Made by a program: the position numbers and the translations under genes
Shown: piece by piece, positions 4,057-63,684 of the stretch
Position numbering within the stretch: the stretch's first letter is position 1
Layout: each line of letters begins with the position of its first letter
From: Minisyncoccota bacterium
Lineage (GTDB): Bacteria; Patescibacteriota; Minisyncoccia; Phycocordibacterales; UBA9973
Assembly: GCA_041664745.1 (NCBI GenBank)
Contig: JBAYKD010000001.1
Location: 27,097 to 91,096, forward strand
Reading direction: 5' to 3'
Length of the DNA stretch: 64,000 bases
The notes under the pieces: model-generated
The model's database searches: none
What the model was told of the DNA's origin: nothing
Seen by the model: only the letters and a program-made list of their open reading frames with translations

Positions 4057-4068
4057 TATTGTTTTTAC

Positions 4069-4097
4069 AAAAAACACCCTCTATCGGGTGTTTTTTG
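4069..4097 (+). terminator. rho-independent terminator
   Basis: ACACCC..GGGTGT stem flanked by an A run and a T run. Confidence 0.7.
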
Positions 4098-4124
4098 TTT
4101 TGTCTTATTTTTTACATATATTTA

Positions 4125-10695: not shown

Positions 10696-10699
10696 ATAC

Positions 10700-10740
10700 A
10701 AAACAAAATCACCTGGTAATTCTCCAGGTGATTTTGTTTT
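10700..10740. terminator. bidirectional terminator between convergent pth and the S1 gene
   Basis: 17-nt arms AAAACAAAATCACCTGG / CCAGGTGATTTTGTTTT. Confidence 0.8.
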
Positions 10741-10749
10741 GTATATTTA

Positions 10750-12081: not shown

Positions 12082-12106
12082 CAGAAAGGGCCTAAGGCCC
12101 TTTCTG
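12082..12106. repeat. REP-like hairpin copy 1 (CAGAAAGGGCC TAA GGCCCTTTCTG)
   Basis: Perfect 11-bp stem with a 3-nt loop, 30 nt upstream of the transposase ORF. Confidence 0.9.
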
Positions 12107-12120
12107 TGAATTTCTATCTA

Positions 12121-12129
12121 TGATATAAT
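12121..12129 (+). promoter_or_regulatory. extended -10 box TGaTATAAT, 6 nt before the ATG at 12136
   Basis: Sequence motif. Confidence 0.55.
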
Positions 12130-12135
12130 TTAAAA

Positions 12136-12810
12136 ATGAGGAAACAACCTATTATTACAGGTGAGAACTATCATATTTATAATCGTGGTGTAGATAAACG
12201 CGATATTTTTGGTGACAAATTTGACCTAAGACGTTTTGTAGAAAGTATAAAAGAATTTAATCAAGTGGATACAATAGGAAGTTTAATTAACTTAAGAAAG
12301 ACTAAAAAGATTCAGAAAGGGCCTAAGGCCCTTTCTGAGGAGTCGCTTGTTTCAATAGTTGTATATTGTTTAAATCCAAATCATTTTCACTTTATTTTGA
12401 AGCAATCTACGGATGGTGGAATAGCTAAGTTTATGCAGAAATTGCAAAGTGGGTATACCTCATATTTTAATATTAAAAACAAACGATCCGGATCATTATT
12501 TCAAGGTACTTTTAAGGCACAGCATATAGGTAGTGAAAATTACTTCAATAAGACTCTTGGATATGTAAACAAAAATTATCAAGTTCATGATATTCCAGAA
12601 GATAAGAAAGAATTAGTATTTGCTAGTGATTATGAATACGAGAATAATAATTTTAAGATTGTTTCAAAAGTAGAAGGGAAAAGAATTTTAGAAATTTTTG
12701 GTGGAGCTGGTAGGTTTAAAAAACATTCAGATGAAATTGTGGAAATTATTAGAAAAGAAAGAGGAAAGACTTTACTTTCGGAAGATGAAAACTTACCAGA
12801 AAGGGCCTAA
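12136..12810 (+). CDS. HUH (Y1) transposase, IS200-like / REP-associated tyrosine transposase (RAYT)-like
   Basis: 224 aa. YHIYNRG start, HUH motif NHFHFIL, SLFQGTFKAQHI and GYVNKNYQVH blocks. The stop codon lies in the loop of hairpin copy 3. Confidence 0.8.
   Translation: MRKQPIITGENYHIYNRGVDKRDIFGDKFDLRRFVESIKEFNQVDTIGSLINLRKTKKIQKGPKALSEESLVSIVVYCLNPNHFHFILKQSTDGGIAKFMQKLQSGYTSYFNIKNKRSGSLFQGTFKAQHIGSENYFNKTLGYVNKNYQVHDIPEDKKELVFASDYEYENNNFKIVSKVEGKRILEIFGGAGRFKKHSDEIVEIIRKERGKTLLSEDENLPERA
12313..12337. repeat. REP-like hairpin copy 2, in frame inside the transposase ORF
   Basis: Identical 25-mer, translated as QKGPKALSE. Confidence 0.9.
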
Positions 12811-12821
12811 GGCCCTTTCTG
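12797..12821. repeat. REP-like hairpin copy 3, supplying the last 4 codons and the stop codon
   Basis: Identical 25-mer, translated in another frame as PERA*. Confidence 0.9.
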
Positions 12822-17149: not shown

Positions 17150-17157
17150 CATAAATC

Positions 17158-17185
17158 AAAAAATCCCCCATATGGGGGATTTTTT
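17158..17185. terminator. bidirectional terminator (AAAAAATCCCCCATATGGGGGATTTTTT)
   Basis: Perfect 28-nt palindrome between tRNA-Phe (+) and the hsp20 gene (-). Confidence 0.8.
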
Positions 17186-17187
17186 GA

Positions 17188-17691
17188 TTATATTGATTTT
17201 ACTTTCAACTTCGTTTCTTTATTCTTATCTATTTTTGGTAATTTAATAATTAAGAGTCCATGCTTCTCAATAGCTTCAGCTTCTTCTGGATTAACTTCTT
17301 CAGGTAATGCGATAGTTCTTGAAAATGTCCCCCAGAAAAGTTCTTGAACAAAATAATTTTCTCTACTGATTGATTGATTCTCCTCTCTTTTACCTTGAAT
17401 AGTTATAGAATCTCTCGTTATATTTATGGTTAAATTGTCTGGATGTACTCCTGCTATCATAGCTTGAACGATGATTTCACTATTTGTCTGGTATAAGTCT
17501 ATGGTAAGCTCTGCTTCTTGATCTTCATCCCACTTAGAATCTTTCTCTTTATTTACTAATTTTTCTGAGTCTCTGATATTTAGATTTATTTTTTTAATAG
17601 AATTAGAAGAGGATCCAGCTTGTTCTTCTTCCTCCTGATCTTCTAAACGAATACTTCCTGTAAGGCGCTCTAAAAATGATCTTTTTTTCAT
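17188..17691 (-). CDS. small heat-shock protein (Hsp20/alpha-crystallin family)
   Basis: 167 aa. Alpha-crystallin domain LTIDLYQT..IVQAMIAGV...ITIQGKRE...F.RTIALPEEV...GLLIIKLPK. Confidence 0.88.
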   Translation of the reverse strand: MKKRSFLERLTGSIRLEDQEEEEQAGSSSNSIKKINLNIRDSEKLVNKEKDSKWDEDQEAELTIDLYQTNSEIIVQAMIAGVHPDNLTINITRDSITIQGKREENQSISRENYFVQELFWGTFSRTIALPEEVNPEEAEAIEKHGLLIIKLPKIDKNKETKLKVKSI

Positions 17692-20602: not shown

Positions 20603-21706
20603 CTACAAAGATAAATTTCCTTGAGCTTTTAGAGATTTTAAATTTTTTACAAACTTTTTGTTTCTGCTTCCGTAGTATCCCACGATTCCTATCATTAGGG
20701 CATTGTCACCCGTAAGACTTTTGATAGGAAAGTGGGTTTTAATATTAAGGAAGTCGGACTTCCTTAGTTTTTTAATTTCATTTTTCATTACTTCTTGCAG
20801 ATAAGTATTTGCTGATACTCCACCTCCTACTATTAGAGTTTTGATTTTGTATTGTTTAATAGCCTTGATTGTTTTATAGACCAAAGTCTCAACAACTGCA
20901 TCCTCGAACTCTTTAGCAATTTTTTGTTTAATGTTTATGTCTTCCAATATATTTGGATTTTTTTCTTTCAAATCACGTATAAGGTAAAGTACTGCAGTTT
21001 TCAATCCAGAAAATGAAAAGTCATAATCTTTAGAATGAATCATAGGGCGGGGGAGAATAATAGCTGGTATTTCGCTCGAAATGTTTGAACGCTCGATGTC
21101 TGCCATCTTTGAAATTTCTGGTCCTCCAGGATAAGGAAGCCCAAGCATACGAGCCACCTTGTCGAAAGCTTCTCCGGCTGCATCATCGCGAGTCTGACCA
21201 ATCTTTTTATATTTGTGCCAATCTTTTACAAGTATAAGTTCTGTGTGCCCACCGGAAACTAATAGTGAGAGCATTGGAAATATTTTTCTATTAGAATTAA
21301 TTGTGAAGGTTTTTCCTTTTTTAGGGAATATAGAGAAAATGTGCCCCTCCATATGGTTCACTTTTATTACTGGAATTTTGTATTTTAGTGATAGTTCTTT
21401 TGCAAAGACGATTCCTGTCCAAAGTGCTGGCTCGAGTCCTGGTCCGTATGTTACGGTGATAACGTCAATTTTTTCCATTTTCATTTTAGCCTGCTTAAGC
21501 GTCTCTTCCAGAACTATTGGTAAATTTTTCTGGTGCTCTCTTTTTGCCATCATAGGGAAAACTCCTCCAAATTCGGCATGGATTTTGATTTGTGAATTAG
21601 TATTGTTGCCTAGAATCTTAAAAGTATCATTTTTACCAGATTTTTTGACTTCCAATATGCTTATTCCTGTATCATCGCATGATGTTTCTATGGCTAAAAC
21701 TTTCAT
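20603..21706 (-). CDS. tsaD: tRNA N6-adenosine threonylcarbamoyltransferase (TsaD/Kae1)
   Basis: 367 aa. LAIETSCDDTG, HMEGH, SGGHTEL, GGVSAN. Confidence 0.93.
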   Translation of the reverse strand: MKVLAIETSCDDTGISILEVKKSGKNDTFKILGNNTNSQIKIHAEFGGVFPMMAKREHQKNLPIVLEETLKQAKMKMEKIDVITVTYGPGLEPALWTGIVFAKELSLKYKIPVIKVNHMEGHIFSIFPKKGKTFTINSNRKIFPMLSLLVSGGHTELILVKDWHKYKKIGQTRDDAAGEAFDKVARMLGLPYPGGPEISKMADIERSNISSEIPAIILPRPMIHSKDYDFSFSGLKTAVLYLIRDLKEKNPNILEDINIKQKIAKEFEDAVVETLVYKTIKAIKQYKIKTLIVGGGVSANTYLQEVMKNEIKKLRKSDFLNIKTHFPIKSLTGDNALMIGIVGYYGSRNKKFVKNLKSLKAQGNLSL

Positions 21707-35143: not shown

Positions 35144-35182
35144 AAATACTAGTCCTAAGCGTGGCTTAGGACTAGTATTTTT
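35144..35182 (+). terminator. strong terminator of the fused lysS
   Basis: 17-bp stem AAATACTAGTCCTAAGC/GCTTAGGACTAGTATTT with a 3-nt loop. Confidence 0.8.
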
Positions 35183-41035: not shown

Positions 41036-41214
41036 TTTGCACAGGTTGGAGCTGTGAAAGTTGACTTTAGTTTTTTAATATGCAAATATGAGAATATGTC
41101 ACTTATTAGTAAAAATCAAAATTTAAATAAGAGCTTCTGGGGAAGTTTCTATTTCTATACTTTCAATTTGAAGGTTGATTTTTGTTAATAAAATTCTCGA
41201 ACTAATTTTTTATT

Positions 41215-41246
41215 AAAAACCAGCTTTCAAACGAAAGCTGGTTTTT
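41215..41246. terminator. bidirectional terminator
   Basis: 14-nt arms AAAAACCAGCTTTC / GAAAGCTGGTTTTT. Confidence 0.75.
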
Positions 41247-41305
41247 AATTTAGTTCTTTCAAATATAAATATAAATAAATTTTTAATTTTTTTAATCAAT
41301 TAATT

Positions 41306-45775: not shown

Positions 45776-46213
45776 ATGAAAATTATTTTAACAACAGATG
45801 TGCCAAAGATGGGTAATAAATATGATGTAAAAGATTTTAAGAATGGATATGCGAACCTTCTCATATCTAAAGGTTTAGCTATCCTTGCGACTCCGGCTGC
45901 ACTTTCTAATTTAGAAAACATGAAAAAGGAAGGAGAGAAAAAGAAAGAGGAAGGAATGAAAGCTTTCGATTCGCTTGTCTCATCTATAAATAACACAAAG
46001 TTGAACATAAAAGTTAAAGCTAATGAGAAGGGTCATTTATTCAAAGCTGTCGGTCCTCGCGATATAGTGGAGGCTGTGAAAAAAGTAACGGGTGTAGACA
46101 TAGATGAAAGATCAATAGTTATGGAACATATAAAAGAAATAGGTACTCATAAAATAGAAATCAAAAAGGGAAGTAAGAAGGGAATATGCGAGGTGATAAT
46201 AGAGAAAGAATAA
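45776..46213 (+). CDS. rplI: 50S ribosomal protein L9
   Basis: 145 aa. MKIILTTDVPKMGNKYDVKDFKNGYANLLISKGLA. Confidence 0.92.
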   Translation: MKIILTTDVPKMGNKYDVKDFKNGYANLLISKGLAILATPAALSNLENMKKEGEKKKEEGMKAFDSLVSSINNTKLNIKVKANEKGHLFKAVGPRDIVEAVKKVTGVDIDERSIVMEHIKEIGTHKIEIKKGSKKGICEVIIEKE

Positions 46214-46255
46214 AAGTAAAAATCTCTGACACATGTGTCAGAGATTTTTACTTTT
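46212..46255. terminator. 44-nt perfect palindrome, bidirectional terminator between rplI and rpmA
   Basis: AAAAGTAAAAATCTCTGACACA|TGTGTCAGAGATTTTTACTTTT. It overlaps both stop codons. Confidence 0.85.
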
Positions 46256-46526
46256 AGATTACGTGAACTATTTTTTTAACGGATGATGTTCGGTTGAAGT
46301 TTACTTTTCTTTTTGTACCGTATTTGATTGTTCCAGGTTTTAAAGCAAATAATGTGTGATCTTTACCTAGTCCAACATTATTACCAGGGAGAATTTTAGT
46401 ACCTCTTTGGCGAATAATGATTGATCCTGCTTTCGCAATTTCACCAGCGTAAAGTTTCGTACCTAAGTACTTTGGATTTGAATCTGTTAAGTTTTTAGCC
46501 GATCCACCGGCTTTTCGATGTGCCAT
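46254..46526 (-). CDS. rpmA: 50S ribosomal protein L27
   Basis: 90 aa. [33 protein letters not shown]. Confidence 0.95.
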
Positions 46527-49408: not shown

Positions 49409-49484
49409 ATTTTATTTCTTTGCGTGTTTCAAAATTAAAATTGAAACACTCATACACACAAAGGAGTCTCTCAATATGTTTAAT

Positions 49485-52906: not shown

Positions 52907-54613
52907 TTATATAAAAAGTTTAGCGAGGCGGATGTCTTCGAAGGAGAGGCTAGAGCCTTCTTTCTCGAGAATTAGTTTGATTGGATTTAATTTTCCTATT
53001 TCCTCCCCTTTCAACTTCTTATTTACTTTTTTTACTAGATCAATATTTTTCTGTGATGGACGGATGTGTGTGATGATCGTCTCTGGATATTCTTTCATTA
53101 TTTGTTCTATGTGGTGAGTGATTGTGCCGATTGTTAAGCTTCTCTCCTTAGCTATTTCTTTAATATTATTTCCCTTGTCTAATAATTCTTTTGTAATTAA
53201 AATAGTTGGGATTTTCGTATCAATGATTCTTCTCTTAAGCAAGGACCGTCCTTGCTTACGTGATTCTTGAGAGTGGTTTATATTTATGGTGCCCCCCATT
53301 CTATTTATGAATTCAACTTCAAGTAATTCTTGCTCGCCATTTTTAAGTTTCTTAAACATTAATTCGTTCTGGAAACTCTCATTTTTTAATTCTTGATCAA
53401 GCTCGAGAATCTTCGGATTTACTAGCAGAGATTCCTTGGTAAAACCTATTAAACATATGCCTGAAAGTGTCCTTACGCGGGAGAGGGCTACGTACCCCAT
53501 TCCGTAGGTAAAAGTGCTTCTAAGGTCAATCAGAGCGTTATCTAGGGACATTCCTTGGCTCTTGTGGATAGTTATAGCCCAAGCTAGCCTTAAGGGGAAT
53601 TGGGTGATGGAAGCCTTTATTCGGCCGTCTTCCTCTATAGCCCAGATTTCAGGTGCTACGACTACACTCGTGCCATTATAAAGTTTTACTATTGGATAAC
53701 CAGACTCAACTTCAAAGCCAGTAATTTTCCCTCGTGATCCATTTACATAACCTTTATCAAAATTATTTTTAATACACATTACCTCAGCGCCAACCTTCAA
53801 TCTTAGTTCTTCGTATGCTAGGCAACTCTTTTTTAAAATATCTACAATTATTTCGTGACCTTTTGAAGTCATATTATAAACTTTTTCTTTTTCATCTATT
53901 TGTGCAAGCTCTTCATAATTCTCTTTATCGACATTTATGTTGTGAGTATAGAGCTTCGTCGCTTTAATTCCCTTGAGTTCCCTATCTATACATTTGTCCA
54001 AGTACTCATAATGCTTTTCTTCCAAAGTATTTGTACGAATATTATTTAATATTTCAGTTAAGGTGTCGTCTTCTTGTCTGTGTTGTTCGGTCAGATAACA
54101 GATAGCAGGATTCAATATTTTCCATGCTTCACTTTCGTAAATCATACTACTCTTTCCATCTTCTTTTTTAGATTTCTCTACAGGTGGGAGTTGAAAGAAG
54201 TCGCCTGAGAGGATTACTTGGAGTCCACCAAATGGCTTGCCATTTCTCTTAAATCTTTTGCAAATTTTATCTACCATGTCCAGCTGGAAGCCGTGAAGCA
54301 TGGAGACTTCATCAATAACGAGGACGCGAGCCTTATCGAATCTTTTCCAAAGATATTTCTTTTCTTCGAGAGCTTCTAATTCGTGCTCTCCCATTACATT
54401 CTTCACCCCTATTCCTGACCAACCGTGAATAGTCATGCCGTTCATATGAGTCGCAGCGATGCCTGTCGAAGCTGTAACGGCGACAGCGATCTCGTGGTCC
54501 TCTAGGTAATCTATATATTTATTCAGAAGATAAGTTTTGCCAGAGCCGGCACTGCCTGTAAGGTAAATATTTACTCCAGTTTTCATTATTTTGAAAGCTT
54601 GCTCTTGGGTCAT
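52907..54613 (-). CDS. PIF1/RecD-like SF1 DNA helicase with a C-terminal helix-turn-helix module
   Basis: 568 aa. LTGSAGSGKTYLL, VLVIDEVSML, TIHKSQG, and the C-terminal ..IKEIAKERSLTIGTITHHIEQ. Confidence 0.88.
   Translation of the reverse strand: MTQEQAFKIMKTGVNIYLTGSAGSGKTYLLNKYIDYLEDHEIAVAVTASTGIAATHMNGMTIHGWSGIGVKNVMGEHELEALEEKKYLWKRFDKARVLVIDEVSMLHGFQLDMVDKICKRFKRNGKPFGGLQVILSGDFFQLPPVEKSKKEDGKSSMIYESEAWKILNPAICYLTEQHRQEDDTLTEILNNIRTNTLEEKHYEYLDKCIDRELKGIKATKLYTHNINVDKENYEELAQIDEKEKVYNMTSKGHEIIVDILKKSCLAYEELRLKVGAEVMCIKNNFDKGYVNGSRGKITGFEVESGYPIVKLYNGTSVVVAPEIWAIEEDGRIKASITQFPLRLAWAITIHKSQGMSLDNALIDLRSTFTYGMGYVALSRVRTLSGICLIGFTKESLLVNPKILELDQELKNESFQNELMFKKLKNGEQELLEVEFINRMGGTININHSQESRKQGRSLLKRRIIDTKIPTILITKELLDKGNNIKEIAKERSLTIGTITHHIEQIMKEYPETIITHIRPSQKNIDLVKKVNKKLKGEEIGKLNPIKLILEKEGSSLSFEDIRLAKLFI
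53236..53258. repeat. perfect 23-nt palindrome TAAGCAAGGAC C GTCCTTGCTTA, in frame inside the helicase gene
   Basis: Translated as RKQGRSLLK in the linker between the helicase core and the HTH module. Shares the AAGGAC-N-GTCCTT core with 61766-61812. Confidence 0.8.
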
Positions 54614-54634: not shown

Positions 54635-54796
54635 ATGGACAAAGACGAAGAAACAATTAAAGAGGTAAAAGAACCTATTTGTCCTCGTTGTGGTCTACGT
54701 TCTTACGATGAGGTTTGCCAGAATTGTGGCACTCCTATTGTGGACAATAAAGACGACGAAGAGGAAGATACAAATTGGCGCGAGAAGTATAGATAA
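54635..54796 (+). CDS. small zinc-ribbon protein with acidic tails
   Basis: 53 aa. CPRCG...CQNCG. The ATG at 54635 is preferred over the track start at 54599. Confidence 0.65.
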   Translation: MDKDEETIKEVKEPICPRCGLRSYDEVCQNCGTPIVDNKDDEEEDTNWREKYR

Positions 54797-54832
54797 TCAA
54801 AAGCACCGCGACGTACGTCGCGGTGCTTTTGA
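54797..54832. terminator. 36-nt perfect GC-rich palindrome, bidirectional terminator
   Basis: TCAAAAGCACCGCGACGT|ACGTCGCGGTGCTTTTGA, immediately after the stop codon. Confidence 0.85.
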
Positions 54833-54838
54833 TTTGAT

Positions 54839-54901
54839 TTACTTTTTTACTACTTTCTTTGGTTTCTTAACTTCTTTTCTGTGACCATCTCCTTTTGCCA
54901 T
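54839..54901 (-). CDS. possible 20-aa basic peptide MAKGDGHRKEVKKPKKVVKK
   Basis: ATG ORF on the minus strand ending 6 nt before the bidirectional terminator. Speculative. Confidence 0.25.
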   Translation of the reverse strand: MAKGDGHRKEVKKPKKVVKK

Positions 54902-55029
54902 ATTATTTCAAGCAAAACAAATTATTTTATAAAAAACTAGTCTGGCTCCTCGTCCTCCCTCATCCGAGGACTTTTTTTAGAATATAATTTGTGAAGCTTT
55001 CTATTTATTATTAATTATTTTATTATACT

Positions 55030-56019
55030 TTATTTATTTTCACTTGAATAGTCCAAACTTGAAGTAATGATCATGTTTCTGTGACTGATGTAATAGTTAG
55101 TTGCGAGTATTCCCCCGATAATTACGAGAGTTATGAGCCCGTTGGTTATAAGGTCAGGATGATGATTCTTTATTCTAATTATTATATTTAAGATTAAGGA
55201 TAGAAGAATTATTCCGAAGATAATAAAGAAGATTACATTGGTACTATTGCGAGGTGAGGAGAATATCTTTTGTAGGAATGTTGGCGTAGTTATATTAGCT
55301 TTTGCTATTTCCGTATCTATTTCGGCACCCAAGACATTAGCAACCTCTTTTATATCTACAGTCTTAGCTACTTCGGTAATATTTTTAATTTCTTTTTGTA
55401 TTTGTGGCTTGATTATATTATTCTGTATATCTTTTAATTCTGCTGTTGGTGTCGGCATTGGGTTCGCATATACTTGAGCGACGAAGACCGTTTCTCTCCC
55501 TTCGTACATACCATTTGCTACACCTGTGCCCATCTCCGTATAGTTACCCTTCACGATATTTGCTTTGTGCGTAGGAGAGGCCATCCATGCATTGGTCACG
55601 TCTTGTGAGTCTGTAAAGTTCACAGCCAAGTTCTCACCAGCGTACTGGTATTCATAGCCGGCCTTTGCGAGCCAGTACCAAGGAGTCTTCCCTTCTGGGC
55701 TGGTGTGGGCAAAGTAGCCATACGTTGCCATATCATTTGCTTTCATTTCGGCTGCTTTGTTTAAAGTAGGATTTACCGCTAGAGTATTTAATTTTTGTGT
55801 TTGACGTTCTTCGTTGGTAAGGTTGGCAAGTATTGCTGGCAAGACTGCAGCCATACCACCAGTGTTATTTATGCGAGTGATAGTAGGGATAAGGAAAGTA
55901 AACACTTCCAAGAATAGAAGCACGAATATAACTTTGCGGATATTCTTGCTACGCAATATGTGGGGACGATTATCGTTCCCATCTTGTGGAATAAAGTGTT
56001 TTTTAAGCCAAGAAATCAT
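55030..56019 (-). CDS. CAP (SCP/PR1-like) domain membrane protein
   Basis: 329 aa from the ATG at 56019. GYFAHTSPEG, ENLA, WMASPTHKANIV, YTEMGTGVA. N-terminal and C-terminal TM helices. Confidence 0.85.
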   Translation of the reverse strand: MISWLKKHFIPQDGNDNRPHILRSKNIRKVIFVLLFLEVFTFLIPTITRINNTGGMAAVLPAILANLTNEERQTQKLNTLAVNPTLNKAAEMKANDMATYGYFAHTSPEGKTPWYWLAKAGYEYQYAGENLAVNFTDSQDVTNAWMASPTHKANIVKGNYTEMGTGVANGMYEGRETVFVAQVYANPMPTPTAELKDIQNNIIKPQIQKEIKNITEVAKTVDIKEVANVLGAEIDTEIAKANITTPTFLQKIFSSPRNSTNVIFFIIFGIILLSLILNIIIRIKNHHPDLITNGLITLVIIGGILATNYYISHRNMIITSSLDYSSENK

Positions 56020-56025
56020 GTTTGC

Positions 56026-56031
56026 ATTATA
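56026..56031 (-). promoter_or_regulatory. TATAAT box 6 nt before the ATG at 56019
   Basis: Minus strand. It lies inside the longer track ORF (start 56049), which itself begins only 2 nt after the upstream terminator. Confidence 0.5.
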
Positions 56032-56051
56032 CATAATAATTGCGTACATGT

Positions 56052-56088
56052 AAAGAAGAGCCCGAAGTTTCGCTTCGGGCTCTTCTTT
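56052..56088 (-). terminator. terminator of the giant surface-protein gene
   Basis: 16-bp stem AAAGAAGAGCCCGAAG/CTTCGGGCTCTTCTTT. Confidence 0.85.
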
Positions 56089-56103
56089 TATTATTTTGTA
56101 ATG

Positions 56104-59100
56104 TTATTTATTTAGCTCTGCTCTAGTCTTTGCTCCTATCACTCCATCCCCTACTAGCTTGTTTGCTATTTGGAACTTGATGACGGCGGCCTTAGTCTTT
56201 ACTCCAAAGTTTCCATCAGCTGTCAAAGTATATCCAAGAGTAGTTAAGAACTTCTGAAGCTCTATGATTTCATTTCCTTTTGAACCCTTCTTCATGAACT
56301 TTGTGAAGTTGAATTTCTCCGCACCGAGAACTTGTCCAATAGCTGGAGTTGTCTTCACAACTGGTCGCATATAACTTCCGCTAGCTCCATGACTATTGGT
56401 TGCAGTTTGAGTATAAGTAGCAAAAGTTGTAAAGTGTTTGGTCCAGATTACCATGTCAGAACCTACATCCATTTTACAATCACCTTCTACTGGGAATAGA
56501 GTACCAGAATTTATAGTTGTGCTACCTATATCAGCATCACAAGTATTTGTTATCTCTGTAAAGACTCCACCTCTAGAATATCCTGCAAATTTACCTGCTT
56601 GCCCTGGGATGAGAATACGAACTGCATTATCAAAAGTTAATTTGATATCACCATATCCAACTTCAATAACTGATAGAACTGTTGAAGTCATGCCACTATC
56701 TGGTGTTGCTGTGACCGTAGAGTTCTCTTTTACTGTTGGAGCATTGATTGTTCCATCCCAACCTGTTGGAGCAGTCACTACTGTACCTGTTGGAATTTCA
56801 ACTGTGACAGGAGTTGTTGATAAGCTTGTAGTTACATTCATTGTAATATCTGGAAGAGTTGCAGTAGTGTGAGTAAGATCATCAGAAGTTAATGAACTGA
56901 CATCAATCGTGGCGTCAGGAACATTTTCAGGAATAGTAATAGTAGTTGCAACTGTAGAATTTACTACGACTTCTTTCTGTGTAGTATTTACTGTAACAGT
57001 TGGAGCAGCAGCTATTTGAGTAGCTGGTAATATTGTAACACTGACTGAATAATTTTGTGTTGTAGAGTTTGCAGCAGTGACTGTATAAACTATAGGATGA
57101 GCTACTGAATCTGTGAAATCATGAGCTACCAGAGTATTTGGGCTAACAGATGCTCCAGAAATTGTAATTGTAGGAATGAGAGCTGTTATATTTGTTCCAT
57201 TAGGAACATTAATTGCAATAGTATAGTCAGATTCTTTCACTACACCTATAGCTTCTAGTGTTGCGAAACTAAATGCAGTAATTTCTTTTGAGTTGGATGG
57301 TGTAAGAGCAAAATTTGCAGTGGCAGATTTATTTGCAGTTACGTTTGTATCAGTTCTTGTTGCACTTGTACTATTAGTGTCGCTCCAATCTACAAAGTGA
57401 TAACCACTATTTGCTACTGCAGTAACTTCTGTTCCACTTGCGCCATGATTTACTGTTTGAGAAGCTGTTCCTGTAATACTTCCATGATCTCCTGCTGTAT
57501 AAGCTAGAGTGTAAGTATTAATTGCAAAGTTTGCAGTAACTGATTTGTTTGAAGTTACATTAGTCTCTGTTCTAGCAGCAGTAAGTATTCCATCACTCCA
57601 ATTTGTGAAGTGATAGCCAGTGTTAGGAACTGCGGTAACTGTTGATCCATCTCCACCATAATTTACTGTTTGCGGTGAAGTTCCCATAATATTTCCATGT
57701 GCTTCAGCTGTATAAGTGAGAGTGTAAGTATTAATTGCAAAAGTTGCAGATATTGTATGAGTGGAACTAATACTTGAGAATGTATATGTAGTTATTACTC
57801 CAACTGAAGATCCATCAACTAAGACATTTGCAACATGATAATTTGCATTAGGAGTAATTGTATATGTCTGACTAGACAAAGCATCTTTTGTTATTACGCC
57901 TGTTGGTGAGACTTCACCATTTGTTCCAGATGTTGCAGTAATATTATATGTATTTATTGCAAATGTTGCAGATATTGTATGAGGAGCCGTAACATTTGTG
58001 AATGTATAACTTGTAATTGCACCTTCTGAATGGCTGTCAACAAGTACATCAACTATATGATAATTTGTATTTGGTGTAATAGTGAAAATCTTACTTGTTC
58101 CAGAATCTATAGATGCAGTAGGAGTGATAGAGCCATGTTCACCAGCTGAAGAAGTCAAAGTAAATTGGTCGGCTGTTGCTCCGAATATTGCTGTCACAAC
58201 TCCAGAATCAACAACGTTTGTTGCTGTTGCTCCTGCTACTGTGAAGAAATCTGCTGGTACACCAGTTAGAGAATAACCAGTTTTTGGAGTTAGAGTAATT
58301 GTTGCTGTATAACTCGTACTTGGAAGGAAATGACTATCTGCTGGTGACCAAGTTACTGTTCCTGTGTATTGAGCTGTTTCAGTAATTGTTGTCACTGGAG
58401 TTGCATCATTTGCCGGTGTTGTTACTCCAGATATTGCTGGTGTTGAGATAGTCAAAGTGTTCATTGATGAACTAGAGTAATAAGGAATGAAGTCAACGTT
58501 TCCAGAAATTTTTGCAACGATATCAGCCTTAACGGAAGTTCCCCACCAGTTATTTTTGGCGTCAATCTGACTTATTCCATTATCAACATTCATAAAATGA
58601 GTTTGTCCATTAAAGGAGGAATGACTTACTGATACAACAGGAGATCCAATCTTTTCAAATCCTCCCACCTCTATTCCATTTACTCCACCATTAAAAACAT
58701 TTCCTGCTCCAATAGTTACTGAAGGATCAGATGTCTCACCATTATAAATTGCCACAGAAACCCCAGCAGTATTGTTGTTAAATGTATTATTTGTCAAAGT
58801 GGCCTGAGTATTAGGATCATCCCAAATTGAAATACCAGAAGAAGTAGACCCATCGATTGTAGCTACACCTGTATTGTCTGAAATAGTGTTATCAGATAAT
58901 GTTATATGTGCACCTCCCCCAATTTCAAATGCATAATCCAGCCAATTGCCAACTCCTTTTCCGGTATATGTATTTCCGCTATAAGTTCCAGTTGGAGCGT
59001 TAGCAGTGTAATATATTTGAACTCCATATCTTCCCATTTCACTAAATTGAGAATCAGTTACATCAACATTTCCACTTGTTAGAACTTCAATACCTGCTCC

Positions 59101-61629
59101 ATTGTAAGCTGGTCCACTTTCTTCATATTTTATATTGATAAACTTTACGTTATTTATGGAACCAGAACTTGAATCTACATATCTTATTGCTTGAAATATT
59201 TTATGTGTTAAACCATCCAAAGTAACTCCTTGTAAGTTAAATAGAGCATTGGAGCTTACTAAAAACCACCCCTTGGAATTTTCAGAATTTCCAGTATCTT
59301 GAGCCGGTTTAATAATCGTCGTTGCTTTATCTGCACCAATGATTGATATATTTTTATCAATAACAATTTGTCCAACTTCCGTATATGTTCCCGCTGAGAC
59401 ATTAATCGTATCACCAGAAATTGCAGCAGTAATAGCATCTACTATTGTTTCGTAACCAGTTTTTCTTGCTTCACTAGTAAGCATGACCGGACCAAATTCT
59501 GTACAATCAATATTTGTACACCATGGAGAATAATCTATATATTCTAATGTACCCGGAGTTGTGTTTGTTACTGAAGCTAAGTCAAAACCATAACCAGCTA
59601 ATTTACTTACAATGGTTGTTTTATCTGCACTTCCCCACCAATTGTTTTCTGCTTTGAAGTTAGTATCTCGATTTGCATCAGTATAAAGATTTACACGTGA
59701 GTTACTATAAATTTTATTATTACTGATATTATTATTCATAATGGAATAACCTGCTTGACTACTATTTCTTATATGTAAACCATCTTTGTTGGTAGTGAGA
59801 GTATTACCAGTTATAGTATTCCCACTTGAGCCCATCATTTCAATCCCAAAAGCAGTGTTCCCAGAAACTGTGTTGTCCGTCACTGTGTTATTACTAGATT
59901 TCCATAAATAAATTCCATTTGCTTCAAAATTAGAACTTTCTGTTGTTCCCGTAGCCCCACTTATTTCATTATCTGTTATAGTATTACTATTACAATCCTT
60001 ACCAATATAAACGCCGTCTCTAGCATTAGTAGTCATTGTATTACCAGAGATAGTGATTGTGGTAGAGAAAAGTGCAGCATTATAGGGAGAAACATCAAGA
60101 ACAATTCCATAACGTGCATTATTAGTAATAGAATTATTCCTTATCGTGCTATTACTTGCTCCTAAAACTGCAACCCCTGTTGCGTTGTTAGTGATAATGT
60201 TGTTTTCAACAGTAATGCCTGTTATAGAAGATCCGCCACCAACCAACCCAATGCCACCATCTGTAGTAATATCCGTTCCAGAATTTCTAACTGTAAAATT
60301 TTTAAATGTCACATTAATTGCTGTAATAGCAACAACAATTCCAGTAGTACCACTGCCATCAATAATAGTCGTGTTTTTATCAGCCCCTATTAAACTAATT
60401 GATTTATTAATCGAAAGATGTTCAGAGTATGTTCCTGCTGAAACATTTATCGTGTCACCAGGAGTAGCAGCTGTAATAGCTGCTTGAATGGTATCGTATT
60501 CTGTACCAGTATTTTGGTTTACAACGTTCTTTGTGTCTTCTGTTTCAAAGGTAGTGAAGTGGTCAGTAGTAAATATAAATATACCAGAATTAAAACCACA
60601 TCCAACACATACAGCGCCGATAGCTGGATAATTTGGATCTCCTAGTGGAATTATATTTCCAGAATTATTTTTTACTATAAGGTTTGGAGCGCCACCAAGA
60701 CCAGATAAGCCGTACATAGTAATAGTAGCTGGCAAATTTTTAAAAACAGATTCAGTTGTTCCAGATACATAAGTATTTAGGCCAATTTTTGCATAAGCTG
60801 TTCCATTTCCTTCAATATCTAATTTGTTTCCAGTTAATTTTAAATAATCAACAGTATTTTTATCTGTAAGATTTAATGGCCCAGCAAAAGCTATTTTACC
60901 TAAAGCGGTTGAAGGTGTATTTACATCTGTTCTCTTTTCAAAATATAGATTAGTTGCGGCGGATGGATTTTCTATTGAACCCATATTTGTTACAACTCTG
61001 TTGCCTGAAGAAAGGTCGCTTGCAATAGAAGCAAGGGTAGGAGGAACAGATGGAGACCCCGTTCCTGCAAGTTGCTCATGAGTCCACGCGATAGCATTAT
61101 TAAACCAGCCTTTAGTTGGGGTACCTGAGTTCCAAGTAGTTGGGGCAGAATAATCTTCCATTCTTCCAGATGAACCTATACTTGGTGCTGTTTGTAAATA
61201 ATTGGGCATATAAGAACCATTGGTTACGTTTCCATAAGTTACTCTGTTTACTGGAGTAGCTCCATTATAAAGCCCTATTGAATCACCAGGATCGTTAAGT
61301 CCTGAAACATCAAAAACTAAAATACCATTAGCTGGCAAAGTTCCAGAAAGTGAAATTAGTTCAACTTCAGTTGGGACAAGTGGTTGTATTGCATCTGGGT
61401 CGGTAAGCTCTGTAAGTTTCCATCCTGTTAGAGGAATATCAGAACTTGTGTTATTTAATAACTCAACCCACTCACTTCCGCTTGAAGGATGCGACATAAA
61501 TTCTGAAATTACAACATCTGGAACTGTAGCATTTGCCGTATTACTAACTAAAAATCCGCCGACTAGAAAAACCAGAGCGAAAAGAATCGTTCCGAGAAAC
61601 TTGAGATGAGATCTCATTTGTGTAAACAT
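56104..61629 (-). CDS. giant surface protein: signal anchor, lamin-tail (LTD) domain, two parallel beta-helix (PbH1/NosD-like) modules, four Listeria-Bacteroides-type repeats, Ig-like region, C-terminal PG_binding_1 domain
   Basis: 1841 aa. VVISEFMSHPSSGSEWVELLN (LTD); NNIITNNATGVAV.. repeats; two GDTINVSAGTY module starts; two NNWWG module ends; C-terminus GSKGNEIIELQKFLTTLGY..DGNFGVKTKAAVIKFQ. Confidence 0.9.
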   Translation of the reverse strand: MFTQMRSHLKFLGTILFALVFLVGGFLVSNTANATVPDVVISEFMSHPSSGSEWVELLNNTSSDIPLTGWKLTELTDPDAIQPLVPTEVELISLSGTLPANGILVFDVSGLNDPGDSIGLYNGATPVNRVTYGNVTNGSYMPNYLQTAPSIGSSGRMEDYSAPTTWNSGTPTKGWFNNAIAWTHEQLAGTGSPSVPPTLASIASDLSSGNRVVTNMGSIENPSAATNLYFEKRTDVNTPSTALGKIAFAGPLNLTDKNTVDYLKLTGNKLDIEGNGTAYAKIGLNTYVSGTTESVFKNLPATITMYGLSGLGGAPNLIVKNNSGNIIPLGDPNYPAIGAVCVGCGFNSGIFIFTTDHFTTFETEDTKNVVNQNTGTEYDTIQAAITAATPGDTINVSAGTYSEHLSINKSISLIGADKNTTIIDGSGTTGIVVAITAINVTFKNFTVRNSGTDITTDGGIGLVGGGSSITGITVENNIITNNATGVAVLGASNSTIRNNSITNNARYGIVLDVSPYNAALFSTTITISGNTMTTNARDGVYIGKDCNSNTITDNEISGATGTTESSNFEANGIYLWKSSNNTVTDNTVSGNTAFGIEMMGSSGNTITGNTLTTNKDGLHIRNSSQAGYSIMNNNISNNKIYSNSRVNLYTDANRDTNFKAENNWWGSADKTTIVSKLAGYGFDLASVTNTTPGTLEYIDYSPWCTNIDCTEFGPVMLTSEARKTGYETIVDAITAAISGDTINVSAGTYTEVGQIVIDKNISIIGADKATTIIKPAQDTGNSENSKGWFLVSSNALFNLQGVTLDGLTHKIFQAIRYVDSSSGSINNVKFINIKYEESGPAYNGAGIEVLTSGNVDVTDSQFSEMGRYGVQIYYTANAPTGTYSGNTYTGKGVGNWLDYAFEIGGGAHITLSDNTISDNTGVATIDGSTSSGISIWDDPNTQATLTNNTFNNNTAGVSVAIYNGETSDPSVTIGAGNVFNGGVNGIEVGGFEKIGSPVVSVSHSSFNGQTHFMNVDNGISQIDAKNNWWGTSVKADIVAKISGNVDFIPYYSSSSMNTLTISTPAISGVTTPANDATPVTTITETAQYTGTVTWSPADSHFLPSTSYTATITLTPKTGYSLTGVPADFFTVAGATATNVVDSGVVTAIFGATADQFTLTSSAGEHGSITPTASIDSGTSKIFTITPNTNYHIVDVLVDSHSEGAITSYTFTNVTAPHTISATFAINTYNITATSGTNGEVSPTGVITKDALSSQTYTITPNANYHVANVLVDGSSVGVITTYTFSSISSTHTISATFAINTYTLTYTAEAHGNIMGTSPQTVNYGGDGSTVTAVPNTGYHFTNWSDGILTAARTETNVTSNKSVTANFAINTYTLAYTAGDHGSITGTASQTVNHGASGTEVTAVANSGYHFVDWSDTNSTSATRTDTNVTANKSATANFALTPSNSKEITAFSFATLEAIGVVKESDYTIAINVPNGTNITALIPTITISGASVSPNTLVAHDFTDSVAHPIVYTVTAANSTTQNYSVSVTILPATQIAAAPTVTVNTTQKEVVVNSTVATTITIPENVPDATIDVSSLTSDDLTHTTATLPDITMNVTTSLSTTPVTVEIPTGTVVTAPTGWDGTINAPTVKENSTVTATPDSGMTSTVLSVIEVGYGDIKLTFDNAVRILIPGQAGKFAGYSRGGVFTEITNTCDADIGSTTINSGTLFPVEGDCKMDVGSDMVIWTKHFTTFATYTQTATNSHGASGSYMRPVVKTTPAIGQVLGAEKFNFTKFMKKGSKGNEIIELQKFLTTLGYTLTADGNFGVKTKAAVIKFQIANKLVGDGVIGAKTRAELNK
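57304..58164 (-). repeat. four tandem ~72-aa coding repeats (each ending A(T/N)FA(I/L)) inside the giant gene
   Basis: Units FTLTSSAGEHG.., TYNITATSGTNG.., TYTLTYTAEAHG.., TYTLAYTAGDHG... The recurring DNA string agtattaattgcaaa marks unit borders. Confidence 0.8.
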
Positions 61630-61765
61630 ATATTTAATTTGTATTATTAATAATTAATAAAATAGGACTAAGAAAAACAAGAACATTTTCTCTATATGCT
61701 TATAGCCTACACCGAAATAGAATCCTGTCAAGGACTTGAAAGGTGCATAAGAAGTGAAGAAGAAT

Positions 61766-61812
61766 TTCCCAAGGACGGTCCTTGGGAAGGCTCTTTTAAG
61801 GACCGTCCTTGG
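61766..61812 (-). terminator. two tandem GC-rich hairpins of the AAGGAC-N-GTCCTT family after the 61817 gene
   Basis: TTCCCAAGGAC G GTCCTTGGGAA (61766-61788) and AAGGAC C GTCCTT (61798-61810). Confidence 0.7.
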
Positions 61813-61816
61813 TGCT

Positions 61817-62806
61817 TTATTGTGGAGTATTTAGATTGGGCAATGTTGCAGTATTTATTGGGGCAGTTGTAGGAGTAATTGGTGCAGGATTTGTATGGGT
61901 TATTGTAGGAGCAGGTGTAGGAGCAGGAGTCTTAACTTCTGGAGTAGCTGGCTTTGCTGGCTGTGATTGTTGTGTTGCTTTTGCTTGTTCTATTTTCTTT
62001 TCTACTGATTTCTCTGCTGGAGTTGCTGTATGTGGGGCAGGCATATTCAAAGGCATAGTAGTGGTAGCTGGCTTCCTTAGGAGACTATAAATTCCATAAC
62101 TTCCACCTAAAAGTATCAATATAATTAACAATATTATCCATATAGACATAGGCCCACTGACGATAGCACCAACTCTTACGGCGCTGGCTGTAAGGCTATC
62201 TTTCAATTTTTCTCTTCCTGAAAGTCCATCATCACTACCATCGCTTGGCAATATTTCCTTTATATTACTGGCTATTGGGCTTATTTCTACAGCCTTACTT
62301 GTTACTGTTGTTTTGGTTGTAGTAATGGGTGGTATGGCTTTGGCGGTTGTGCTTGTTTTTGGAGGAGTGACTAATGTCGTTGTTTTACAACGATTTCCTG
62401 TATTTATATCATATGTATCCCCTGACTTAAGTGCACATCCGAAAAGCATAGGTTTTATATAGCTTGAGCAACGAATACCAGTATTCACATCAAATACATC
62501 TCCTGATCCGGCCTTGCATCCTACAAGCACTGTTTTTACGTTGTTATTACAAGGTCTTCCAGTATTTACGTCATAAAGATCCCCAGATTTTGGTGCACAT
62601 CCGACGAGTACCATTGTAGATACTGATCCATCCTTATTGATATTACTGACTGGGGATGATAATGAATAGGAAACGCCCAAAGATTTGATCGTAGTTGTTG
62701 CGGCCTCCCCTTTTGCTGTGTTTATAAAAAATCCACCGACGAAGAAAAGCATGGTGAATAAAATCGCCCCGATAAATTTGAGATTGGTTCTCATTTGTGT
62801 AAACAT
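61817..62806 (-). CDS. surface protein with a paralogous leader, three Cys-bracketed repeats, a TM segment and a Pro/Thr/Ala-rich tail
   Basis: 329 aa. The N-terminus MFTQMRTNLKFIGAILF.. mirrors the giant protein's N-terminus MFTQMRSHLKFLGTILF.. Confidence 0.8.
   Translation of the reverse strand: MFTQMRTNLKFIGAILFTMLFFVGGFFINTAKGEAATTTIKSLGVSYSLSSPVSNINKDGSVSTMVLVGCAPKSGDLYDVNTGRPCNNNVKTVLVGCKAGSGDVFDVNTGIRCSSYIKPMLFGCALKSGDTYDINTGNRCKTTTLVTPPKTSTTAKAIPPITTTKTTVTSKAVEISPIASNIKEILPSDGSDDGLSGREKLKDSLTASAVRVGAIVSGPMSIWIILLIILILLGGSYGIYSLLRKPATTTMPLNMPAPHTATPAEKSVEKKIEQAKATQQSQPAKPATPEVKTPAPTPAPTITHTNPAPITPTTAPINTATLPNLNTPQ
62387..62599 (-). repeat. three 27-aa-period coding repeats G-C-x(3)-SGD-x-(Y/F)-D-(V/I)-NTG-x-(P/R)-C
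   Basis: Cys pairs at aa 70/86, 97/113 and 124/140. Confidence 0.75.
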
Positions 62807-63282
62807 AAATTTTAATTCTCGCGTCTCGCAACCGGTGCGGACGGATTTGGTATTAAGATTGATAAAAAATTAGTTTCTAAAAACAAGAACACATATACCT
62901 ACAGATTATACCGAATGGAAACTAAGTCAAATATTTAATTAAGAGCGAAACACAAATCGACGTCTGTCAATACCAACTAAATTTAAAAAATAGTGGCAAC
63001 ATTTTCTGCACCTGCAGGAAATGCTGCCAGATGTTTTGAAGTTTTATTTTGGGAGAAAATTTTTAAAAAAATGACGTCTAAAAACATTTGAGAAATATAG
63101 ATATATAAGTTGTTCTTTATAAAGGACATATCTATAAAGGACACTATATGATGTCCTTTAGAAATATAGGCTATATAACCTTATCTTTTATCCTGCTATT
63201 GATAAATATGTAAATTTATGTTATTTTGTAAAAAATAGAAAAAATAGAATAATTTTTAAATTAATTTTAAATTTTAGACCAT

Positions 63283-63684
63283 ATGTACTATCCTGATCTT
63301 TTAAGTTTGAAGGGTAACACACTTAAATTGGGTGATGTGTTATCTGTTCATAACATGCTTCATGTTGCATGTTGTAATTCCCTAAGAAACTTATATCAAG
63401 ACGATTCCCAGATTTTCAAAGATCTGGGTATTGAAAACAAGGACAAATTTTGTTCTTATTATTATAAGTATCAAGCTCTTCCGGGAGAGTTCCCCCTCTC
63501 TAAGGAAGATGATTTTCCTGCCATGACTAATCTTGCTATAGCTCTCATGGAGCTATCAGAAGAAAAGATTCTGGAAGAAGAAAAAAAGATTCTCATAATG
63601 AAAGAATATCTTGAAAGTGAAGAACTTCTTCATAAAGAGATAACTAGAAAAAAAGGATTTTTCGAACGAATCCTTGGCTTCTAA
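63283..63684 (+). CDS. hypothetical protein
   Basis: 133-aa ORF; no family recognised. Confidence 0.5.
   Translation: MYYPDLLSLKGNTLKLGDVLSVHNMLHVACCNSLRNLYQDDSQIFKDLGIENKDKFCSYYYKYQALPGEFPLSKEDDFPAMTNLAIALMELSEEKILEEEKKILIMKEYLESEELLHKEITRKKGFFERILGF

Follow-up and report, generated by a model that had tools for sequence, protein, structure and literature searches.

The 64-kb window considered here, the whole stretch that was analysed, belongs to contig JBAYKD010000001.1 of a bacterium from the Minisyncoccota, within the Patescibacteria or Candidate Phyla Radiation (CPR). Its G+C content is 34%, and protein matches assign it to the Nomurabacteria/Paceibacterota part of this group. At 61766-61812 two short palindromes with the core AAGGAC-S-GTCCTT lie between two genes on the minus strand. 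The upstream gene encodes a secreted or membrane protein of 325-329 residues (329 as an open reading frame (ORF), the gene caller placing the start four codons later), and the downstream gene encodes a giant surface protein (Table 1). As discussed below, the two palindromes probably represent a single inverted doublet of a CPR-wide family of repetitive extragenic palindromes (REPs), of the type called REPIN (REP doublet forming a hairpin), moved by a REP-associated tyrosine transposase (RAYT).

Palindrome copies in the window and on the contig

The core, AAGGACNGTCCTT, has three exact occurrences in the window. Two of them, 9 nt apart, make up the locus at 61766-61812, where copy 2 ends 6 nt from the TAA stop codon of the upstream gene (61817-61819, minus strand). 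The third is at 53236-53258, inside the gene of a PIF1-type helicase. The palindromes, their placement after the stop codon and the recurrence in the helicase gene had all been described in the initial annotation and are confirmed. About 0.16 matches would be expected in the window if one mismatch is tolerated, and an estimate from the base composition gives about 0.002 exact ones. By itself the hexamer AAGGAC shows no excess (29 in the window against a mean of 27 for its permutations), and the repeating unit is therefore the palindrome, not the hexamer.

Sequence beyond the window came from the ENA metagenome contig ERZ27249449 k141_1165549 (281,295 bp), of which the window is the reverse complement of positions 190200-254199; the analysis covered 83 kb of this contig, window included. 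The 9.5 kb adjoining the window on its left contain three more copies of the AAGGAC type, bringing the number to six in 83 kb, a density of about one copy per 14 kb. Two of these three are imperfect, inverted and bracket mscL. The segment, at 323-1130 of locus L196, holds mscL at 530-931 (minus strand) between the inverted imperfect copies at 485-505 and 1008-1030, and is bounded by a direct duplication of about 95 bp that comprises the 3' end and terminator of a neighbouring 98-residue ORF. Its appearance is that of a cargo insertion bounded by REPs, or of a duplication.

Table 1. Features of the window and forms of the palindromes (positions are those of the window)
Feature	Position	Strand	Description
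REP copy 1	61766-61788		TTCCCAAGGAC-G-GTCCTTGGGAA; 11-bp perfect arms, centre G at 61777
REP copy 2	61798-61810		AAGGAC-C-GTCCTT; 6-bp arms, centre C at 61804; inverted relative to copy 1
REP copy 3	53236-53258		TAAGCAAGGAC-C-GTCCTTGCTTA; inside PIF1-type helicase ORF 52907-54613, codons 452-460
REPIN-like doublet	61769-61812		copies 1 and 2 paired: 15-bp perfect helix, 14-nt loop, centres 27 nt apart
AAGGAC-family hairpin, single-stranded form			TAGCAAGGAC-S-GTCCTTGCTA
Palindrome expected beside a type A RAYT gene of this genome			(T)AGCAAGGAC-S-GTCCTTGCT(A)
RAYT-like Y1/HUH transposase gene, type B lineage	12136-12810	+	Pfam Y1_Tnp
Type B REP upstream of the RAYT-like gene	12082-12106		CAGAAAGGGCCT-A-AGGCCCTTTCTG
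Type B REP inside the RAYT-like coding sequence	12312-12338		in frame (IQKGPKALSE); low-confidence loop 48-67 of the AF2 model, predicted to be disordered
Type B REP over the RAYT-like stop codon	12797-12821		
Upstream gene	61817-62806	-	secreted or membrane protein, 325-329 aa; stop codon 6 nt before the doublet
Downstream giant surface-protein gene	56104-61629	-	beta-helix, LTD, PG_binding; doublet 137-181 nt upstream of its start
Hairpin of the divergent promoter region	63136-63159		AAAGGACA-ctatatga-TGTCCTTT; 8-nt spacer
Ordinary terminators	4067-4098, 10696-10744, 17154-17189, 35144-35180, 41212-41249, 46211-46256, 54795-54834, 56052-56088		

Pairing of the two copies

Copy 1 contains the 15-mer CCAAGGACGGTCCTT, and copy 2 contains its exact reverse complement, AAGGACCGTCCTTGG; the match extends to the centre base. 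Because the centre bases G and C are complementary, the two copies can pair with each other in a long helix, and this is the minimum-energy fold of the minus (sense) strand (-33 kcal/mol, z = -4.3). Copy 1 folded alone reaches -16.6 kcal/mol as minus-strand RNA, -17.7 as plus-strand RNA and -9.9 as DNA. Copy 2 alone reaches only -3.1 kcal/mol, a value equalled or bettered by 78 of 200 shuffles. With DNA energy parameters the outcome is the same, whichever strand is folded. The initial annotation had described a tandem pair of terminator hairpins. What is found instead is one 15-bp helix between the copies, with a second copy that is unstable by itself, in a family in which U-tracts are few and a third of the copies are intragenic.

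A palindrome family across the CPR

A pattern scan for CAAGGACSGTCCTTG in one genome per species (185,579 species) matched at least 118 stretches, and the family-wide counts of arms, doublets, placement and T-runs given here rest on the matches listed in that scan. Sixty-one of the listed stretches carry CPR names, and seven more, low-G+C metagenome-assembled genomes (MAGs) named only "bacterium" and similar in look, are probably CPR. The groups represented are Saccharibacteria, Kaiserbacteria, Nomurabacteria, Paceibacterota, and Taylor-, Adler-, Colwell-, Curtiss- and Moraniibacteria. In a genome collection of this kind, CPR contribute only a few percent of the species and some 1-2% of the bases. 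As more than half of the listed matches are CPR against this small share, the core is greatly enriched in CPR. The proposal of the initial annotation that a short hairpin element is dispersed beyond the locus thus holds, with copies elsewhere on the contig and in at least 61 CPR-named stretches.

The arms of the CPR loci have a mean length of 10.1 bp and a maximum of 16, whereas those of non-CPR loci are mostly 7-8 bp (mean 7.8). A scan of viral contigs gave 64 single matches with 7-bp arms and a random centre base. The non-CPR and viral matches look like chance. A position-frequency profile of 97 oriented copies gives the consensus TA[G/C]CAAGGAC-S-GTCCTTG[C/G]TA. The 13-nt core is identical in CPR classes that span 29-59% G+C, and the outer arms are specific to the genome yet always complementary: one Kaiserbacteria MAG has TACCAAGGAC..GGTA throughout, and a Saccharibacteria MAG has TTGCAAGGAC..GCAA. 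Single genomes can hold many copies, with at least 10 in one Kaiserbacteria MAG and at least six in one Saccharibacteria MAG.

Doublets are a recurrent arrangement. In all 21 neighbouring pairs, defined as copies no more than 300 nt apart, the centre bases are opposite, so that neighbours always stand in inverted orientation. Of 17 doublets that were folded, all but one form a single long hairpin of -28 to -46 kcal/mol. The 27-nt spacing of the window doublet, with its spacer GGGAAGGCTCTTTT, recurs with near-identical spacers in L100 (Saccharibacteria) and L163; the spacers of all three are similar to the pattern GGG(G)AAnCTCTT.

RAYT-like transposases and their palindromes

The Y1/HUH transposase gene at 12136-12810 encodes a protein that matches Pfam Y1_Tnp with 32.6 bits (cutoff 23), and the N-H-F-H residues of HUH type and the conserved Y are invariant in the transposase alignments. 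Its homologues have been named "REP element-mobilizing transposase RayT" by the Joint Genome Institute (JGI). The sole NCBIfam match of the RAYT-like proteins is the REP-associated tyrosine transposase model (REP_Tyr_transpos, NF047646), with 26-37 bits, the window protein scoring 28. Searched by sequence only against the PDB, the window protein gave no match, and comparison of folds was required. The best PDB fold match of the AlphaFold (AF2) model (predicted local distance difference test, pLDDT, 78) is 4ER8 (Foldseek, E 5e-5, probability 1.00), the structure of E. coli RAYT in complex with a REP hairpin, followed by the TnpA proteins of IS608 and ISDra2.

The AAGGAC palindrome is linked to genes of this kind. 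Eleven loci fetched only via the palindrome hold homologues of the window transposase with 33-46% identity and E 1e-23 to 1e-40; blastp of the window protein found those of L103, L116, L150, L182, L188 and L191 over this range of E values. The palindrome directly flanks the transposase gene in seven of the eleven (L103, L116, L117, L150, L151, L182 and L188). An additional copy lies within the transposase gene, at the same loop, in L150, L182 and L188, where it is translated as YQGRSLV, KGPSLV and TQGPSLS.

The reverse test used 80 metagenomic loci fetched via the transposase alone. Nine of the ten closest carry palindromes of the types GCAAGGAC/GCAAGAAC-N and (T)AGCAAGGAC-N, placed about 28-32 nt before the start of the transposase gene and/or 3-27 nt after its end. 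Perfect palindromes with a one-base centre (odd palindromes) flank the transposase in 39 of the 80. The core varies with the transposase lineage (CAAGG-AC, -TT, -CT, -GT, -CG and others), and the AAGG/CCTT stem is kept. Among relatives of the window transposase the REP changes on both arms together (GGGCCT/AGGCCC, GAGCCT/AGGCTC and GTGGTT/AACCAC). This flanking and the co-variation with lineage indicate that the AAGGAC family (type A) and the family at 12 kb (type B) are the REPs of two sister transposase lineages. The two families had been called distinct in the initial annotation; this is correct for their sequences, and by descent of the transposases they belong together, with the AAGG...CCTT stem in common.

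In the window, 12082-12821 forms a complete "REPtron", in which a palindrome of 25-27 nt stands upstream of, within and over the stop codon of the RAYT-like gene. The same arrangement is kept in L198 and L200, with compensatory base changes. The left-hand neighbours of the window gene (Pth, an S1 protein and others) are kept in L198 at 82% identity; the homologue in L200 (72% identity) sits elsewhere. Many RAYT-like genes of both lineages are found on very short contigs of 1-3 kb, which suggests that the palindromes flanking them often break metagenome assemblies.

Placement of copies and in-frame insertions

Crude ORF calls place 33 of the 97 listed CPR copies inside ORFs and 64 between genes. 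Contexts with starts only hold six of the 64 intergenic copies; most copies stand after stops or in ORFs. Among 58 stop-facing copies, 31 are within 30 nt of the stop codon, and the centre base shows no bias with respect to the transcribed strand (33 G and 25 C). Intragenic copies are translated in frame as QG[R/P]SL, RTVL or KD[G/R]P and add about 5-15 residues. Their host genes include PurH (twice, at the same site), RecG, UvrA, PurL, MiaA, MgsA, a GT4 glycosyltransferase and DNA polymerase III delta', and these are genuine genes, Pfam domains lying on either side of the insert or around it.

Copies are present in some relatives and absent from others. Copy 3 reads in frame as RKQGRSLLK in a hypervariable linker of the PIF1/HTH_40 helicase. 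The same insertion is found in a Nomurabacteria MAG (L121), and the linker is short and empty in the 91%-identical orthologue P0002 (L193). In L192 and L067 it is filled by another palindrome, CTCCGCNAGGA-AAG-TCCTNGCGGAG. The helicase linker is an insertion hot spot. At the doublet, the L067 orthologue of the upstream gene product (332 residues) has no AAGGAC palindrome after its stop codon, and the doublet lies exactly at the break of synteny between the window and L067.

The palindrome of the L192 and L067 linkers belongs to a family TCTCCGC(T/G)AGGA-AAG-TCCT(A/C)GCGGAGA, translated as SPLGKSSRK, which also occurs elsewhere in L067 (6365-6391). The essential gene tsaD (20603-21706, minus strand) contains the in-frame palindrome TAAGGAAGTC-G-GACTTCCTTA at 20746-20766, also perfect and with a one-base centre; it coincides with an insertion of six residues relative to the solved TsaD structure 8iey. 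A palindrome related to that of tsaD, GGAAGTC-C-GACTTCC, follows the helicase stop codon in L067 (11716-11744).

Comparison with known systems

Systems of REPs or REPINs with a RAYT (TnpA-REP) have been described in Gammaproteobacteria, including E. coli and Pseudomonas (PMC3116915; PMC3337134; bioRxiv 10.1101/2021.07.10.451892). The CPR family resembles them in several respects. It consists of short, multi-copy palindromes whose doublets are inverted and form one hairpin; in other CPR genomes the Y1/HUH gene is flanked by REPs of this family, and the REP sequence changes with the transposase lineage; copies are found mostly just downstream of genes; and the fold of the transposase is closest to 4ER8.

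Other features set it apart, and some of them weigh against the assignment. The CPR units are much smaller than gammaproteobacterial REPs, being perfect palindromes of 13-33 nt with a single unpaired centre base, and the window doublet is only 45 nt long compared with about 100 nt for REPINs. No asymmetric flank or GTAG-type tetranucleotide was found at the foot of the hairpin in the 97-copy profile. About a third of the CPR copies lie in frame within genes, unlike classical "extragenic" REPs, and a copy sits within the transposase gene itself. The core is conserved throughout the superphylum instead of being species-specific; such conservation across classes is unusual for REPs and could point to a further function at the level of the host. 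The outer arms of the three window copies differ, whereas copies are uniform in some other genomes. The CPR proteins, from a patescibacterial host, stay well below the cutoff of the RAYT equivalog NF047646 (26-37 against 80 bits); they are distant relatives, outside the proteobacterial RAYT clade. Finally, in the 83 kb examined no RAYT is flanked by AAGGAC-type REPs, the window RAYT carrying the type B palindrome, and no second RAYT, of type A, on the same contig is among the best 120 transposase protein matches. We infer that the cognate type A RAYT is located elsewhere in the genome.

Three other kinds of element invite comparison. Rickettsia palindromic elements (RPEs) are about 100-150 bp long and are inserted in frame in protein-coding genes. 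They are not known to be linked to a Y1 transposase. The CPR family shares with them a palindromic repeat in the reduced genome of a host-dependent bacterium and a short in-frame peptide in tolerant regions; it has no sequence similarity to them, and its inserts measure only about 5-15 residues. The ends of IS200/IS605 elements and of their miniature derivatives, the palindrome-associated transposable elements (PATEs), are likewise hairpins that a Y1 HUH transposase recognises in single-stranded form. In IS200/IS605, however, left and right ends are imperfect and distinct hairpins with defined cleavage tetranucleotides, and the element is multi-copy together with its gene. In the CPR, solo hairpins far outnumber the genes, and the transposase gene looks single, its neighbours on one side being kept in one species at 82% protein identity. 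Rho-independent terminators, including bidirectional ones, also have a G+C-containing stem-loop right after the stop codon, and the window copy has a partly T-rich tail. They differ from the CPR family, which has no consistent U-tract, is conserved in the sequence of its core and not just in structure, and occurs in ORFs and around transposase genes.

Proposed mechanism

The E. coli TnpA-REP and IS200/IS608 enzymes provide an established model of transposase action on hairpins in single-stranded DNA. By analogy, a RAYT-like HUH/Y1 tyrosine transposase would recognise the folded hairpin in single-stranded DNA, cut beside it, and copy it or move it elsewhere. Genomes as compact as these would retain copies that lie a few bases after stop codons, such as the doublet, or in frame in tolerant loops or linkers, such as the helicase copy. 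Mobilisation of this kind appears to be the mechanism best supported by the linkage, the co-variation and the insertion polymorphism, taken with the E. coli TnpA-REP and IS608 precedents.

Once transcribed, the doublet may, where the upstream gene ends, slow down RNA polymerase or stop 3' exonucleases, as a by-product and not as its identity. Attenuation of transcription or protection of the mRNA 3' end by the doublet hairpin, with its tail ATTCTTCTTC, is thus possible. Such effects have been reported for REPs elsewhere (works cited in bioRxiv 10.1101/2021.07.10.451892).

Alternative explanations

The palindromes might be a pair of Rho-independent terminators, or a composite one, for the gene at 61817-62806, their likeness to other copies being due to convergence or local duplication. 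The doublet lies 6 nt past the stop codon and upstream of a promoter-like region of the next gene, its hairpin is strong, and a consensus scan picks out a terminator-like stem of 10 pairs at 61788-61766 (minus strand), followed by the tail ATTCTTCTTC. This tail, however, has six T in 10 nt in an interrupted run, whereas clear terminators in the window have long A/T tracts beside long stems, and copy 2 is too weak to stand alone (-3.1 kcal/mol). Across the family, only four of the 58 stop-facing copies have at least six T among the following 10 nt; the mean number, 3.3, is that of the background. The same core also occurs in frame within housekeeping genes and flanks transposase genes, and the orthologous gene of L067 has no hairpin at this place. 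We regard the terminator explanation as improbable.

The ordinary bidirectional intrinsic terminators of the window (Table 1) are long, perfect inverted repeats with arms of 13-23 bp, bordered by A-tracts at one end and T-tracts at the other, and are quite unlike the REP copies. Among Rfam 15 families only tRNAs reach a gathering score in the window, and in 61650-61900 nothing comes near any gathering score, even at a permissive threshold.

We consider it about equally improbable that the conserved core serves the host, for example as a signal for DNA uptake or RNA processing or as a site that organises the chromosome, with a domesticated transposase-like protein as its partner. An identical 13-nt core in classes of 29-59% G+C is unusually deep for a mobile repeat, and the window RAYT keeps its left-hand neighbourhood in L198 (82% identity), as it would under vertical inheritance. 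It has also been argued that benefit to the host is what maintains REPIN-RAYT systems (bioRxiv 10.1101/2021.07.10.451892). Against this, the centre base has no strand bias relative to transcription, and copies are tied to no particular class of gene. The low density (about 1 per 14 kb) and the lack of enrichment of the half-site hexamer are both unlike uptake sequences, and a DNA-uptake sequence was rejected on these grounds.

A third explanation, that the palindromes are operator sites of a dimeric transcription factor controlling the giant surface-protein gene and its neighbour, is very unlikely. The dyad symmetry is perfect, the two sites are adjacent and lie 137-181 nt upstream of the giant gene, nine of the 29 AAGGAC hexamers of the window cluster in 61730-63439, and inverted repeats of AAAGGACA are kept upstream of the neighbouring gene in L067. 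Nevertheless, the outer arms differ between copies and genomes and stay complementary, which indicates a hairpin and not a fixed duplex site. The half-sites are only 7 bp apart from centre to centre, most copies lie after stops or inside ORFs of unrelated genes, and the palindrome is directly linked to RAYT-like genes. Chance likeness or a purely local duplication, which the presence of only three window copies, two of them adjacent, might suggest, is refuted by the expectation of about 0.16 matches, the further contig copies 70 kb away, the orthologous helicase copy in another MAG (L121) and the many extended copies in CPR genomes.

Significance

We found no paper on REP/REPIN-RAYT systems in CPR, nor any with this sequence, in a literature coverage that is incomplete. 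REP/REPIN-RAYT systems are themselves known; most descriptions come from Gammaproteobacteria, and such systems are said to be almost confined to intergenic DNA. The related system appears to be new for CPR. Its presence throughout these ultra-small, gene-dense genomes means that miniature mobile DNA can persist under extreme genome streamlining. There is perhaps an even chance that the partnership of REP and RAYT is ancient and vertically maintained across the Patescibacteria, keeping the AAGG...CCTT stem and often the whole core in classes 30% apart in G+C, forming inverted doublets of 45-110 nt, and inserting peptides into essential proteins and into a loop of the RAYT itself. If true, the bacteria with the most streamlined genomes known would have a REPIN-RAYT relationship that is unusually close and has not been described. 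The copy at a fixed loop in the transposase's own gene hints at self-recognition or autoregulation.

On the practical side, TA[GC]CAAGGAC-S-GTCCTTG[CG]TA is a conserved, searchable marker for CPR contigs and for breakpoints in assemblies. The intragenic copies offer natural cases of essential enzymes that tolerate an in-frame peptide insertion, and the compact pair of hairpin and transposase lends itself to the study of RAYT target recognition. In the annotation of the window, "terminator pair" is better replaced by repeat element.

Local gene context and other palindromes

The block 54850-61816, which comprises the giant gene and a CAP-domain gene, is absent from L067 (8700-8880), where the helicase is 89% identical and an operon with a LexA-like S24 peptidase stands in place of the block. 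Upstream of the S24 peptidase gene is the LexA-box-like palindrome TGTGAACG-NN-CGTTCACA (GAAC-N4-GTTC), at 9130-9147 in L067, 8-25 in L070 and 9076-9093 in L072; the window has no such gene there. The 325-residue protein and the giant protein of 1837 residues have in common an N-terminus MFTQMR..., a start resembling a signal peptide. Paralogous sequence (TTCGGT.., GTGTTCTTGTTTTT) lies upstream of both genes, at 61560-61830 and 62740-63290 on the minus strand. These likenesses point to a putative duplication of promoter and 5' end between the two genes.

The hairpin at 63136-63159 had been assigned to the same family in the initial annotation as a copy with a longer loop. The sequence is present; it was rejected as a member because it has an 8-nt spacer in place of the one-base centre and shares only the hexamer. 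A direct copy of AAAGGACAT lies 15 nt away. The hairpin is conserved with identical arms in the orthologous promoter region of L067 (7435-7487), which adds ACATGTCCTT-N4-AAGGACATGT. The hairpin may be a regulatory site and lacks the architecture of a REP. Another palindrome, GTGTTTCAA-N8-TTGAAACAC, is perfectly conserved immediately upstream of the DEAD-box helicase gene in four species (49424-49449 in the window, 14172-14197 in L067, 8780-8805 in L070 and 15969-15994 in L072), and is likely an element of the 5' untranslated region or an operator of that gene.

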